This document shows, one piece after another, positions 21,737-26,528 of a DNA stretch of 64,000 bases; the stretch's first letter is position 1; each line of letters starts with the position of its first letter. Made by a program: the position numbers and the translations under genes. Where the stretch lies: sequence record PQ330092; one strand, 5' to 3'. The DNA is from Escherichia phage JP4. Below the pieces are notes generated by a model. The model was not told where the DNA came from. It was given only the letters and a program-made list of their open reading frames with translations, and searched no databases.

Positions 21737-21964
21737 ATGACAAATACTCTTAAGTACTACCTCAATACTCTAAATGAACTAGAGTACGGGGAATTTCTCG
21801 CGGATAGTTCGTGGCTAATTGAGCTAAAAAATTATAATAGTCCAGGATGCACCCTTATGATGAACAATGCAATTGATACCCTCATTGTGAGTATTTTACA
21901 CAGCAACATCTGCGGGGATAGCAATAAACAATTATCAAAAATCTTAGTACTGCTATCTATATGA
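21737..21964 (+). CDS. small protein, first member of tandem ~60-aa paralog array (75 aa)
   Basis: AAGGAGAA RBS; C-terminal LVLLSI resembles family C-terminus. Confidence 0.55.
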   Translation: MTNTLKYYLNTLNELEYGEFLADSSWLIELKNYNSPGCTLMMNNAIDTLIVSILHSNICGDSNKQLSKILVLLSI

Positions 21965-22164
21965 ATATCGAACAGTACTACATCGATGCACTACCAACAA
22001 AAGGTCTACGTGAAAGCCTACTGCATACACAAACTAATTTCAAACACCTCAAACGTAGCCCTAAACTCCTGAACTCGTACAGGAATAATAACATAAGAAA
22101 TGCTTTACAAGGGGTAGAATGTATGCAATACTATTACATCCTTACCCTATTAATCGAGTACTAA
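21961..22164 (+). CDS. small paralog-family protein
   Basis: Overlapping start; conserved N-terminal EQYY. Confidence 0.55.
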   Translation: MNIEQYYIDALPTKGLRESLLHTQTNFKHLKRSPKLLNSYRNNNIRNALQGVECMQYYYILTLLIEY

Positions 22165-22165
22165 T

Positions 22166-22375
22166 ATGAATACTGAACATAAAGAATTCTACACCAAATA
22201 CCTTAGCAACGAAGAACAATTGTTTCTAAGGAGTGTATCACCTGTAAGTACCAATACTCAATTCGGTAGAGATTGCTTTAATAATTGTATACGTAGTACT
22301 CTAGAAGCAATCGAATGCAATAACAAAAATATTATGTACTCAGGTTTAATAGGACTAATATATTTCTATGAATAA
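22166..22375 (+). CDS. small paralog-family protein
   Basis: MNTEHKEFY N-terminus, FGRDCFNNCI Cys motif; near-identical paralog at 25747. Confidence 0.6.
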   Translation: MNTEHKEFYTKYLSNEEQLFLRSVSPVSTNTQFGRDCFNNCIRSTLEAIECNNKNIMYSGLIGLIYFYE

Positions 22376-22562
22376 TCATAAAGATTTCTATTGTAGTAAA
22401 CTACCCAAACAAGAACAGCTATCATTCTCTTTAGCACCACCTATGAGAAAGGATAATCTGTATTATAATTACGATTTCAGGATGGTGACACGTTATGCAA
22501 TAGAACATCAGTTCCCTGAAACTAAGTACCGCTCTATCCTGAACCTCATCTTTAAGTTCTAA
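22368..22562 (+). CDS. small paralog-family protein
   Basis: MNNHKDFY N-terminus; overlapping start. Confidence 0.55.
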   Translation: MNNHKDFYCSKLPKQEQLSFSLAPPMRKDNLYYNYDFRMVTRYAIEHQFPETKYRSILNLIFKF

Positions 22563-22614
22563 AAGGTACACCAGGGACCGAGTACTTTAATATAGTAAGG
22601 CTAATTACATTATA

Positions 22615-22800
22615 ATGAATCATATAAGCTACTACTACCAACAACTATCCGACAGAGACAAGTACAGTCACAACTCCCATGTGTGGTACTACAAACGCGG
22701 CAGTATAAGAGACAAACAACATTACTTCTGTATTTCTATTAAAGAAGCACTGACAACTAAGTACACGTACCGAGCAGTACTTAAACTTATTGAAATGTAA
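22615..22800 (+). CDS. small paralog-family protein
   Basis: C-terminal YRAVLKLIEM motif. Confidence 0.55.
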   Translation: MNHISYYYQQLSDRDKYSHNSHVWYYKRGSIRDKQHYFCISIKEALTTKYTYRAVLKLIEM

Positions 22801-22993
22801 AGAGAATACTATGAACATTGAATTGTACTTAAGTAAATTACAGCCTGGCGATAGATTCATCTACAATAAGTTCGAATTCAACTACAAGAACGGGAGCAAC
22901 AAATATCGTCGAGGATACCTATATACAAGCACAAGAGATGCACAAAACGAAAAGTACACATACAGAGAAGTACTTAAACTAATCTCTATTTGA
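22790..22993 (+). CDS. small paralog-family protein
   Basis: C-terminal YREVLKLISI. Confidence 0.55.
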   Translation: MKCKENTMNIELYLSKLQPGDRFIYNKFEFNYKNGSNKYRRGYLYTSTRDAQNEKYTYREVLKLISI

Positions 22994-23001
22994 GGTAATA
23001 T

Positions 23002-23187
23002 ATGAATACATTTGAGTACTATACCAATAAACTATCTATGCCTGAAAGATCTCATCTCTATGTGTGGAGAAATGCGTATAAAAGCGGCAATAAACTTATA
23101 CAAAGAAATTCCCTTACAGTGTGTACAAATTTAATTAAAGCAGAGTACCGCACATATATTGAAGTACTCAAACTGATAGCAATATAA
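23002..23187 (+). CDS. small paralog-family protein
   Basis: MNTFEYY N-terminus, C-terminal IEVLKLIAI. Confidence 0.55.
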   Translation: MNTFEYYTNKLSMPERSHLYVWRNAYKSGNKLIQRNSLTVCTNLIKAEYRTYIEVLKLIAI

Positions 23188-23195
23188 GGTACTCT

Positions 23196-23375
23196 ATGCA
23201 AGAATTCTATATCTATAACCTCCAGCACAAAGATAGATACAACTATAATAAATTCCAAAGGTACTACACAGTCGGGAACAAAAGAGATAAAAAACGTTAT
23301 CTACTCTCGTGTACAGTAGAAGCACAAAACGAAAAGTACACGTACAGAGAAGTACTTAAACTAATCTCAATCTAA
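23196..23375 (+). CDS. small paralog-family protein (59 aa, below ORF-track cutoff)
   Basis: MQEFYIYN...YREVLKLISI read directly from sequence; fills gap in array. Confidence 0.5.
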   Translation: MQEFYIYNLQHKDRYNYNKFQRYYTVGNKRDKKRYLLSCTVEAQNEKYTYREVLKLISI

Positions 23376-23382
23376 GGTAGAC

Positions 23383-23571
23383 ATGAACACTTTTGAGTAC
23401 TACTTCAATAAACTAAACCACATAGAACAAAGTATGCACCACACATTTATTCAGAACCATCAATCATCTTCACCTCTAATTAAAAACATATCGATTGAGA
23501 TTATCACTACCCGTGTACAGTCATCTGAACGTTATATGTATATTGATGTACTGAAACTCATCTCTATGTAA
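23383..23571 (+). CDS. small paralog-family protein
   Basis: MNTFEYY N-terminus, C-terminal IDVLKLISM. Confidence 0.55.
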   Translation: MNTFEYYFNKLNHIEQSMHHTFIQNHQSSSPLIKNISIEIITTRVQSSERYMYIDVLKLISM

Positions 23572-23579
23572 GGAATACT

Positions 23580-23759
23580 ATGCAACAATTCTATAGAGAA
23601 CACATAAGCATTAAAGACCGTTTCATGTACGACACCTTCGTGAAGTACTACAAACTAGGAACAAAAAGTACTAAAAATATTAATCTCAATAGCTGCATTT
23701 ATGCTGTACTAACACAAGATAATCCCTACAGGGAAATCATTGCCCTGGCATCTATATAA
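23580..23759 (+). CDS. small paralog-family protein (59 aa, below ORF-track cutoff)
   Basis: MQQFYREH... read directly from sequence; fills gap in array. Confidence 0.5.
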   Translation: MQQFYREHISIKDRFMYDTFVKYYKLGTKSTKNINLNSCIYAVLTQDNPYREIIALASI

Positions 23760-24985: not shown

Positions 24986-24986
24986 T

Positions 24987-25169
24987 ATGCACAAAGAATA
25001 CTACACACAATTTCTCCCCAGCATTTTTGAACACTACGCCAGATACAAAGTCCCTATGGATAACGATTTGGCAGTACTGGGATTCAATAACTGCATAGAA
25101 CGAAGTATAGAAAATAGTAGTAGTTATGACCAGCTATATAACACTATCCTACTTATATTCAGGTACTAA
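24987..25169 (+). CDS. small paralog-family protein
   Basis: MHKEYY, FNNCIERS, LLIFRY. Confidence 0.6.
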   Translation: MHKEYYTQFLPSIFEHYARYKVPMDNDLAVLGFNNCIERSIENSSSYDQLYNTILLIFRY

Positions 25170-25170
25170 T

Positions 25171-25359
25171 ATGCATAAAGAATACTACACAAAATATTTC
25201 CCAATGTACCTCAGTACTAATCTATTAGATAAACCTCGCGGTATCAATGCACAAAACGATAAAGTGTACTTTACTATGTGCACTAAAGCATGTATACTAG
25301 ATCATGACAGCTACCATCGAGTACTGTATCATACCCTGTACCTAGCTTTCGTATTCTAA
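25171..25359 (+). CDS. small paralog-family protein
   Basis: Start at MHKEYYTKYF ATG at TAATATG junction. Confidence 0.55.
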   Translation: MHKEYYTKYFPMYLSTNLLDKPRGINAQNDKVYFTMCTKACILDHDSYHRVLYHTLYLAFVF

Positions 25360-25368
25360 GAGAACAAT

Positions 25369-25554
25369 ATGCATAAAGAATTCTACTTAAGCCATCTCGA
25401 TCTAAACTCCCAAATGCTTATACCACTAATCCCAATAGATATCAAGGATAAGAAAAATACCGAACAATTCATTTACCATACACAGTGTGCGATCACCCCA
25501 AATTACATTCCATATGAATTGTACTACATTATCGCCCTAATATATAGGTACTAA
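25369..25554 (+). CDS. small paralog-family protein
   Basis: MHKEFY, HTQCAI, ALIYRY. Confidence 0.6.
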   Translation: MHKEFYLSHLDLNSQMLIPLIPIDIKDKKNTEQFIYHTQCAITPNYIPYELYYIIALIYRY

Positions 25555-25555
25555 T

Positions 25556-25741
25556 ATGCATAGAGAATACTACACACAATTTGTTAAAGGGAACTACAAA
25601 TGTGCCGTACCCAGAACCCCTTTAAATTCTCATGACCCAAGTACTATATTCTTGTTTAATGACGCAATACGTACAGTACTCAATACTAAAGATGAAGATG
25701 TGCAGTACGTATTCTTACTATTACTTATATACAGACACTAA
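25556..25741 (+). CDS. small paralog-family protein
   Basis: MHREYY, LLLIYRH. Confidence 0.6.
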   Translation: MHREYYTQFVKGNYKCAVPRTPLNSHDPSTIFLFNDAIRTVLNTKDEDVQYVFLLLLIYRH

Positions 25742-25746
25742 CTAAT

Positions 25747-25956
25747 ATGAATAAAGAACATAAAGAATTCTACTCCAAATACATAAGCCCCTCAGAACAA
25801 ATGTTTCTAAGGACTACTCCACCTTTAAGTACTAATACATTTTTCGGCAGAGTATGCTACAATAATTGTATTCAAATGACTTTAAACGCAAATGAAGATG
25901 GTAACAGTACTAACCTGTACTCAGGTATCATAGGTATACTATTCCTGTATGAATAA
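25747..25956 (+). CDS. small paralog-family protein
   Basis: MNKEHKEFY, FGRVCYNNCI; paralog of 22166. Confidence 0.6.
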   Translation: MNKEHKEFYSKYISPSEQMFLRTTPPLSTNTFFGRVCYNNCIQMTLNANEDGNSTNLYSGIIGILFLYE

Positions 25957-26137
25957 TTACAAAGACTTCTATTTGAATACACTACCTACTGTACTTTCTC
26001 TAAGTGCTCAATGTAAAATCCCGCTGGATAATGCTTACGCCAGATATAGCTATTCCATAACTGTTAATCGATGTATAGAGAATCATTGCAGTACTAACCA
26101 GTACTATAACATAATCCTACTTATATTCAGGTACTAA
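25949..26137 (+). CDS. small paralog-family protein
   Basis: MNNYKDFY, LLIFRY. Confidence 0.6.
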   Translation: MNNYKDFYLNTLPTVLSLSAQCKIPLDNAYARYSYSITVNRCIENHCSTNQYYNIILLIFRY

Positions 26138-26138
26138 T

Positions 26139-26321
26139 ATGAATACTGAACATAAAGAATTCTATATACGAAAACTAACATTCGTCCCCGTAAGAATATA
26201 TAAAGAATGCGACCCAAGATTATACCTATGGCACTTCAATGAGTGCATAAAAGATTCTATATACCATAAGAACTATAAAGAACAATTGTGCTCAGTACTA
26301 ACACTAGTACTATCATATTAA
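26139..26321 (+). CDS. small paralog-family protein
   Basis: MNTEHKEFY, FNECIKDS. Confidence 0.6.
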   Translation: MNTEHKEFYIRKLTFVPVRIYKECDPRLYLWHFNECIKDSIYHKNYKEQLCSVLTLVLSY

Positions 26322-26336
26322 TTAATAGAGAATACT

Positions 26337-26528
26337 ATGTATAAAAACTTCTATATAAGTAAACTAAAAGAAAATGAACAAGTATGGATTAGATCTATAA
26401 TTCCACTGGCATTTAATAGATATGCATTTAACAGATGTACCGAGATTGCTATAGACCCTTATAATATCAAAGAGAATGTACAGTATAATCAGTACTACTA
26501 TATCTTAATGCTTATATATAGGAAGTAA
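26337..26528 (+). CDS. small paralog-family protein (last array member)
   Basis: MYKNFY, FNRCTEI, LMLIYRK. Confidence 0.6.
   Translation: MYKNFYISKLKENEQVWIRSIIPLAFNRYAFNRCTEIAIDPYNIKENVQYNQYYYILMLIYRK

Follow-up and report, generated by a model that had tools for sequence, protein, structure and literature searches.

A tandem array of paralogous small genes at the edge of the terminal repeat in Asteriusvirus jumbo phages

Small early gene clusters tied to terminal redundancy are known from the host-takeover module of SPO1 (gp37-60) and from the pre-early region of T5. In poxviruses, terminal host-range families form so-called genomic accordions, in which fast-evolving paralogs of variable copy number are associated with terminal repeats and change through unequal recombination. 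Bacillus phage G carries an expansion of about 35 zinc-ribbon copies (PMC7824862), and two relatives of the phage described here are also comparable: CBB has RpoD-type promoters and short open reading frames (ORFs) beside its terminal repeat, which were read as early host-takeover genes (PMC5259590), and PA5oct depends on host RNA polymerase and expresses the genes of its direct terminal repeat (DTR) early, as judged by RNA-seq (PMC7318152). The present analysis concerns 64,000 nucleotides of Escherichia phage JP4 (record PQ330092), referred to below as the window, in which an array of small paralogous genes occupies positions 21737-26528 of the + strand, close to the DTR. A tandem array in phage 121Q was remarked upon in a single sentence, as evidence for genome growth by duplication (PMC5646251), and no earlier description of the extent, subfamilies, fold or dynamics of the family was found in the literature beyond that sentence.

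The array comprises exactly 21 small genes of 59-75 amino acids (aa), according to both the ORF list and the GenBank annotation of Escherichia phage vB_EcoM_E9.1; as the original prediction, made from the letters of the DNA, had described, they stand back to back with one 219-aa gene among them. The region of 4.9 kb is 99.7% identical to that of E9.1 and 93-99% identical to those of about 30 other Asteriusvirus jumbo coliphages and Salmonella phages, 121Q, PBECO4, slurp01 and SHEFM2K among them, and the GenBank annotations of E9.1 and 121Q contain the same array genes, all as "hypothetical protein". The small ORFs are genes under moderate purifying selection: pooled over reciprocal-best orthologues from 11 other phages, the ratio of nonsynonymous to synonymous substitution rates (dN/dS) is 0.43 in the annotated frame and rises to 1.08 and 1.17 when the frame is shifted. 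A hidden Markov model (HMM) of the family finds 14-22 members per genome in 13 genomes, 225 in total and on one strand throughout, which bears out the deep amplification that had been proposed and shows it to be lineage-specific. Only one of these copies is truncated (40 aa, TH47 locus 4577-4699, from an "unverified" record).

All-against-all blastp sorts the members, numbered m01 to m21 in their order along the array, into three groups: subfamily A (m05-m10), subfamily B (m03, m04 and m11-m21) and the outliers m01 and m02. Paralog identity is 20-45%. The pairs m03-m04 and m18-m19 form a segmental duplication (m03 to m18, E 1e-29; m04 to m19, E 1e-10), in which m03-m04 is an older copy. When HMMs were built with one group left out, cross-matches between groups were marginal, the subfamily B model reaching 51 of 52 subfamily A members at a median E of 0.12. 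Profile-profile comparison joins A and B at 94% probability (E 1e-7, 60 in-register columns) and m02 to subfamily B at 89%, the probability for m01 being just 2%. Global hhalign scores against 60 column-shuffled nulls gave z values of 13 for A-B, 14.9 for m02-B, 7.8 for m01-m02 and 3.6 for m01-B, so that the alignable conservation exceeds what composition would give, and the predicted paralogous family with at least two subfamilies is recovered. By these comparisons 20 members belong firmly to one superfamily; m01 is probably a very divergent member, on moderate evidence, and is tied to the family only through m02, because its z value with m02 is so much higher than with subfamily B.

Three features are common to the family. 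The N-terminal motif (K/H)(E/D)(F/Y)Y..(K)L contains an invariant Tyr, F..C(T/I) marks the centre, and at the C-terminus stands Y..L.LI, in which a Leu is conserved in at least 90% of members. The motifs of the original prediction thus hold in part, the two C-termini defining subfamilies A and B, but a functional Cys motif is not supported: the central Cys occurs in 16 of the 21 members, in the strict form hydrophobic-xx-C-[TIVA] in only 13, and members with no Cys at all number two in the window and 32 among the 225 from 13 genomes. The Cys position falls on the hydrophobic i/i+3/i+4/i+8 stripe of a predicted helix, and the residue is probably a buried small one and not a ligand. A metal or catalytic site was rejected on account of the single, non-universal Cys; so was the zinc-ribbon or other Cys-based metal-binding class, which needs four Cys/His ligands in paired CxxC/CxxH knuckles, given one central Cys and an all-helical predicted fold. 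In composition, subfamily A is mostly basic (isoelectric point, pI, 9.2-9.6 except for m09, net charge +3 to +6) and rich in Tyr, Lys, Arg and Asn, subfamily B is near neutral, and all members are Tyr-rich. No hydrophobic stretch long enough for a membrane span was found in the members.

The AlphaFold2 model of m13, made from a 50-sequence family alignment, is all-helical and confident, with a mean predicted local distance difference test score (pLDDT) of 89.8, a predicted template modelling score of 0.74, and helices at residues 3-9, 14-17, 30-45 and 49-62. The conserved residues form hydrophobic stripes on the predicted helices, and the loops and surfaces are variable, the loops most of all. 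A Foldseek search of the model against the PDB gave no match at E <= 0.001, and a structure search of BFVD returned the family's own members only. No family matches were obtained in Pfam (five representative members), NCBIfam or a PDB sequence-profile search, and neither the five members nor the 219-aa gene contained a helix-turn-helix (HTH) or other Pfam domain. A known small DNA-binding domain, HTH or other, was rejected on these results and the missing fold match. Anti-CRISPR-type loci often carry an associated HTH regulator (aca).

With regard to sequence databases, 13 of the 21 members match phrog_11711, a PHROGs v4 family of unknown function, at E <= 0.01 (best 1.2e-27), and the other eight are joined to the family by profile-profile comparison; phrog_11711 and the 121Q genes 249-265, annotated as "hypothetical protein", thus represent the same family as the window array, of which the PHROG covers a part only. 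A word-indexed search of 5.8 billion proteins gave 49 matches and an exhaustive HMM search of 1.84 billion representatives gave 35, all of them stand-alone, single-domain proteins of 41-98 aa with no fusion to another domain. Those with a name belong to Asteriusvirus phages or are E. coli records, and among the matches whose sequences were inspected the likeness to the family is close. In tblastn against 50,697 phage records the family was found in 35 Asteriusvirus-like genomes only, and orthologous arrays occupy the same position in 121Q, E9.1, SHEFM2K, slurp01, BF17, fEgEco12, A4, JNE01 and others. The family is an orphan found only in Asteriusvirus-like phages, and is best explained as one of small (~60 aa), predicted four-helix, cytoplasmic proteins that are specific to this lineage and tandemly amplified.

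Like the SPO1 and T5 modules, the array is a cluster of many small, apparently non-structural and mostly orphan genes at or near a long DTR, and it would share with them host-type promoters and good Shine-Dalgarno (SD) sequences. It differs from them in lying 260 bp outside the repeat, in having one moderate putative promoter where those have many strong ones, and in being made of paralogs of a single family where those consist mostly of unrelated genes; no sequence or fold likeness to their proteins was seen. The short-ORF region of CBB (CBB_390-546) and the early DTR genes of PA5oct come from the same broad clade and share the RpoD-type promoters and the short hypothetical ORFs adjoining or within the DTR, however no homologous family was detected outside Asteriusvirus-like phages and a 20-fold paralog expansion is unreported for those regions. 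In jumbo phage G, too, a tiny protein has been expanded in tandem within one lineage, but its products are zinc ribbons and those of the array are predicted four-helix proteins with one non-essential Cys. Poxvirus accordions belong to another virus realm and involve unrelated proteins, and the likeness is an analogy only; the adaptive copy-number response is a feature of the poxvirus side. What is already known is that the genes are annotated, inconsistently, in more than 30 public genomes, that part of the family is a PHROG, and that tandem expansions of tiny proteins occur in jumbo phages. What is new is the single superfamily with its two subfamilies and two junction architectures, the confident orphan four-helix predicted fold, the restriction to one genus, the copy-number and mosaic dynamics, and the divergence hot spot at the DTR junction.

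Across the genus the order of the module is kept: promoter, m01-m02(-m03)-m04, subfamily A, the 219-aa gene, subfamily B, a spacer of about 0.3 kb and the DTR. Membership varies, with m03, m12, m18, m19 and m06-m09 coming and going, m06-m09 being the most variably present, while a core set of m01, m02, m04, m05, m10, the 219-aa gene, m11, m13-m17 and m21 is conserved in most of the genus. Chimeras joining the N- and C-terminal parts of neighbouring paralogs, for example the N-half of m13 with the C-half of m15, occur in several genomes or metagenomic and assembly proteins, and one family protein from the metagenomic and assembly set has a duplicated C-terminal "LVLS" segment. The truncated TH47 copy, the chimeras and the "LVLS" duplication are snapshots of recombination and slippage in the array. 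The window array is itself a mosaic, in that m01-m04 and m13-m21 are 96-100% identical to those of slurp01 or SD-15_S21, and m06-m08 with the 219-aa gene match BF17 and fEgEco12 (96-100%) and not slurp01 or 121Q (70-76% for the 219-aa gene). DNA similarity between paralogs is 0.56-0.75 at the gene junctions as against about 0.3-0.4 within genes, and this concentration provides a short-homology substrate for unequal crossover. Orthologues resemble one another much more closely than paralogs do; the array thus shows no concerted evolution, and the majority of its duplications are older than the main clade. Relative to the divergent phage JNE01, the small proteins have a median identity of 34% and the 219-aa protein 38%, whereas the RCC1-like gene on the flank stands at 81% and the DTR genes at 83-90%; judged from these values, the module is a divergence hot spot that evolves faster than both flanks. 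The copy-number range, the chimeras, the divergence, and the variable loops and surfaces set against conserved hydrophobic stripes are consistent with a panel of binders, without proving one.

Of the 21 junctions between consecutive genes, six are TAATATG with a 1-nt spacer and one is an ATGA overlap, as the original prediction had noted for several genes; a further three are 8-nt overlaps, ten have spacers of 5-15 nt and one has 52 nt. The short junctions, and the SD-like AGG or GAG motifs ahead of 17 of the 21 downstream genes, were counted in favor of real genes. The first gene, m01 (21737..21964), has an AAGGAG SD sequence at 21722..21727 whose AGGAG core is kept in 12 of 12 aligned genomes; at 75 aa and pI 4.7 it is acidic and the most divergent member, and it overlaps m02 (21961..22164; 67 aa, also divergent) by the ATGA. 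Two subfamily B genes follow, m03 (22166-22375) and m04 (22368-22562), and then the 52-nt gap, in which a possible internal promoter, TTAATA-N18-TATAAT (22587..22616, +), is a consensus match only, at 10 of 12 positions. The subfamily A block (22615..23759, +) holds six genes with the C-terminus ..VLKLISI: m05 (22615-22800), m06 (22811-22993), m07 (23002-23187), m08 (23196-23375), m09 (23383-23571) and m10 (23580-23759). The subfamily B block (24422..26528, +) holds eleven with the C-terminus ..LLIYRY: m11 (24422-24604), m12 (24606-24785), m13 (24794-24985), m14 (24987-25169), m15 (25171-25359), m16 (25369-25554), m17 (25556-25741), m18 (25747-25956), m19 (25949-26137), m20 (26139-26321) and m21 (26337-26528). 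The two subfamilies differ in junction architecture, as in subfamily A the SD is placed after the stop codon (TAAGGT or TGAGGT) and in subfamily B the junction AGGTACTAATATG (...AGG TAC TAA T ATG) uses the Arg codon AGG of the upstream C-terminal "RY" as the SD for the next gene. Since this "RY" doubles as a ribosome-binding site, part of the apparent protein conservation at the C-terminus is a nucleotide-level constraint.

Between m10 and m11 stands the 219-aa gene (23770..24429, +), which marks the boundary of subfamilies A and B in all of the arrays examined; its end and the start of m11 share 8 nt. It gave no match to the family HMMs and no significant one to Pfam, and its only homologues are close ones from Asteriusvirus-like sequences. 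Its dN/dS is 0.45, and relative to JNE01 it diverges as fast as the small genes do. The AlphaFold2 model is unusable (pLDDT 38), and as a functional clue the gene was set aside as giving no information, having close homologues only and being unrelated to the family.

The two tandem copies of the 20,114-bp repeat in the window result from the end-to-end joining of a linear record that carries one DTR at either end. Copy 1 spans 26788..46901 (no strand given), copy 2 begins at 46902, of which the window covers 46902-64000, and the two are 99.99% identical. A DTR of about 20-21 kb was determined experimentally or by PhageTerm in the Asteriusvirus phages fEgEco12 and Sharanji (PMC13070987, PMC11895373). 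The array stops at 26528, outside the right DTR and 260 bp before it, so that no coding block of the unique genome comes after it; the corresponding positions in fEgEco12 are 353,438 for the end of the array and about 353,741 for the start of the DTR, the latter calculated from the published lengths (374,733 - 20,993), a distance of about 300 bp. One DTR copy contains 24 sigma-70 sites that match the consensus at 11 or more of 12 positions (1.19 per kb). Of these, 12 are perfect (TTGACA-N16/17-TATAAT) and 19 lie on the + strand, and the same scan found zero such sites in the RCC1-like array and zero in the small-gene array. By this measure the DTR looks like a dense early transcription region. 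Few ORFs of at least 100 aa are present in it, and each copy has a hairpin, GGCAGA-GGAAG-TCTGCC, 8 nt in from its left boundary (26796-26812 and 46910-46926); it scored as weakly terminator-like and could perhaps be tied to the genome terminus.

The putative promoter of the array, TTGACA-N17-TACTAT at 21683..21711 (+), is sigma-70-like and lies in an 84-bp divergent intergenic region. Its -35 hexamer TTGACA is invariant and its -10 always has the form TAnnAT (TACTAT, TACAAT or TAGAAT) in 12 Asteriusvirus phages, including the divergent JNE01 and Turkey5, and in some the -10 is nearer to consensus (TACAAT) than that of the window. The promoter-like site named in the original prediction is thus present and has an invariant -35, but matches of this kind are not locally enriched. 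Taken with the co-orientation of 19 of the 24 DTR promoters and the precedents of CBB and PA5oct, the invariant TTGACA suggests a rightward early region, transcribed by host RNA polymerase and continuing into the DTR, whose most upstream unit would be the small array. The RCC1-like virion genes next door have a promoter motif unlike that of the small array, and this was also counted in favor of early timing.

On these observations the best-supported reading of the array, put forward tentatively and given somewhat less than an even chance, is a panel of small helical binders, made early and non-structural, that would serve host takeover or counter-defence. Under it, host RNA polymerase would transcribe the array early as one polycistronic unit from the conserved sigma-70-like promoter, in the direction of most promoters in the adjacent repeat, and tight coupling between genes would yield the products in roughly fixed proportions. 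Each paralog would keep the shared hydrophobic core (the N-terminal Tyr, the central F-x-x-C/T stripe and the C-terminal Y-x-x-L-x-L-I helix) and present its own surface, the paralogs jointly acting as stoichiometric binders of host proteins in host takeover, anti-defence or both. Homologous recombination at the conserved gene junctions, both unequal and between phages, would make the array grow, shrink and reshuffle. A bolder form, which is doubtful but deserves mention, is a recombination-driven accordion of early binders by analogy with poxviruses, in which each paralog would neutralize a different host defence or takeover target, gain, loss and chimerisation at the junctions would adjust the range of E. 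coli and Salmonella strains that serve as hosts, and the 219-aa gene would be a functional partner.

Several results weigh against the panel of early binders. Promoter-like matches are not enriched in this AT-rich region, 35 being found where 38.7 are expected from shuffled sequence, and a promoter match alone is weak evidence because the scan gives no more sites than shuffled sequence does; the array promoter matches at only 10 of 12 positions, and the entire intergenic region is conserved, so the hexamers are not singled out. In its position outside the DTR the array departs from the early modules of SPO1 and T5, and sequence, profile and structure searches found no homology or fold likeness to known anti-defence, anti-sigma or host-shutoff proteins. 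The literature yielded nothing specific on anti-defence, transcriptomics or expression in Asteriusvirus. A non-structural role is favored by the absence of small-family proteins, of about 7 kDa, from the 62 virion proteins of phAPEC6, where the listed proteins are of at least 12 kDa save for the 4.66-kDa gp315c (PMC7247149, Table 1), but small proteins are easily missed by virion mass spectrometry. Diversifying selection, which the original prediction had suggested, is not supported in the strict sense by pooled and per-column counts, with the pooled dN/dS of 0.43, dN/dS above 1 in just two of the 21 members on very few sites and substitutions, and no region in which the proportion of nonsynonymous changes is clearly above that of synonymous ones. 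By the per-column counts the loop (family HMM columns ~20-32) is near neutral and the C-terminal helix is the most constrained part, and the fast divergence could stem from relaxed constraint.

Other explanations were weighed against the same evidence. That the ORFs are chance features of AT-rich repetitive DNA has in its favor that they are very short, lack any database function and are partly omitted from several annotations (e.g. that of BF17); this was effectively refuted already by a dN/dS that approaches neutrality (~1.1) only out of frame, by 21 ORFs filling 4.8 kb of one strand with gaps of 15 nt or less apart from the 52-nt one, by profile homology far above shuffled controls and by the confident AlphaFold2 model, which leaves it a negligible probability. 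Another alternative is a set of largely dispensable duplicates, a near-neutral genomic accordion that fills spare capsid capacity and is weakly maintained without specific targets. Hua et al. propose tandem duplication as a route of jumbo genome expansion and cite the 121Q array (PMC5646251), individual members are lost or fused in many genomes, divergence is high, and the dN/dS of 0.43 is relaxed compared to 0.23 for the RCC1-like neighbours. Such duplicates would hardly be expected to show frame-specific purifying selection, to be intact in nearly all 225 copies, or to keep core set, order and promoter across most of the genus, and the paralogs, although old, are still retained with no concerted evolution, so this explanation is considered improbable. 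The basic charge and Tyr/Lys/Arg/Asn-rich composition of subfamily A, the neighbouring DTR with its 24 strong promoters, and the precedent set by the reading of the phage G zinc-ribbon expansion (PMC7824862) would suit a lineage-specific expansion of small nucleic-acid-binding or transcription regulators, or of architectural DNA binders, acting for example on the DTR promoters. This too is unlikely, given that subfamily B is near neutral and m01 acidic, that no HTH, zinc-ribbon or other DNA-binding family was found by Pfam, NCBIfam or PDB profile, and that the one non-universal Cys provides no metal site.

The small proteins could also be dedicated partners (chaperones, adaptors or assembly factors) of the RCC1-like propeller proteins, which are encoded by 11-12 tandem paralogs at 7382..21652 on the - strand, divergent from the small array. 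In each Asteriusvirus genome examined the two arrays lie side by side in divergent orientation, and both are lineage-specific expansions, but the evidence otherwise separates them. The counts, once thought to be close, are 21 and 11-12, and the promoter types differ, TTGACA-N17-TACTAT as against TAAATATRRTATAAT. Eight RCC1-like homologues were identified by mass spectrometry as virion proteins of phAPEC6 (PMC7247149), whereas the small-family proteins were not. RCC1-like genes occur in 61 phage records, from jumbo phages of 9 host genera and usually near the DTR or genome end, Klebsiella, Salmonella (Munch-like), Erwinia, Yersinia, Serratia, Cronobacter and Xanthomonas jumbo phages among them, and the small family is confined to Asteriusvirus-like phages, as neither tblastn nor exhaustive HMM searches found it in RCC1-bearing jumbo phages outside Asteriusvirus. 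The RCC1-like array of Klebsiella phage fENko-Kae01 stops 330 bp short of the annotated DTR, small genes are missing from the interval, and searching that phage with the family HMMs gave no match. The tblastn "places" merge adjacent paralogs and are not usable for a correlation of RCC1-like copy number. On account of these differences in count, promoter, virion content and distribution, the small array looks like an Asteriusvirus-specific insertion and expansion at the junction of the unique region and the DTR, and a propeller partner set is very unlikely. The probability left over by the panel of binders and by these alternatives belongs to roles other than those listed.

The RCC1-like genes have a conserved element of their own, as 10 of the 12 carry TAAATAT[AG][GA]TATAAT just upstream of the gene start, at 21665, 20443, 19264, 18024, 16761, 15525, 14715, 13502, 11050 and 8619 on the - strand. 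In the upstream sequences that were printed, this element comes after a terminator-like hairpin (CCAGTACTTGATACTGG followed by a T-run) and ahead of the SD sequence AAAGGAGGG; each propeller gene would then be its own terminator-promoter unit, of a class that departs from the sigma-70 consensus. The T4 late promoter is TATAAATA, and in two Rak2-like phages, CBB and GAP32, ATAAATA has been reported as the core of late promoters. A promoter of the T4 late type was considered for the RCC1-like genes and rejected, as it is absent and the different motif is conserved there instead. ATAAATA, and hence TATAAATA, occurs zero times on either strand of window positions 1-46901, which are 65% A+T; A/T-only heptamers have a median count of 31 there, and the next-lowest after ATAAATA is 7, which makes the absence a striking avoidance. 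Beyond the propeller array, a second back-to-back run of genes was seen at 3421-6201 (+), comprising eight genes of 104-141 aa whose products have hydrophobic, membrane-protein-like N-terminal regions, with at least the first two paralogous to each other (51% identity, E 2e-37).

Asteriusvirus jumbo phages are repeatedly isolated as therapy candidates, and more than 80% of their genes are without known function. The 4.8-kb module accounts for about 22 genes of one genome; set between two conserved flanks and beside a promoter-dense repeat, it is the block that diverges fastest and varies most in copy number. The array is a good and cheap experimental target more than a conceptual surprise. If its members are dispensable, the array would document the inflation of jumbo genomes through tandem duplication. 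If they are takeover or anti-defence binders, nature would have supplied about twenty variants of a single tiny helical scaffold that can be folded with confidence, and the array would offer a compact system for new host targets and for the evolution of paralog panels.

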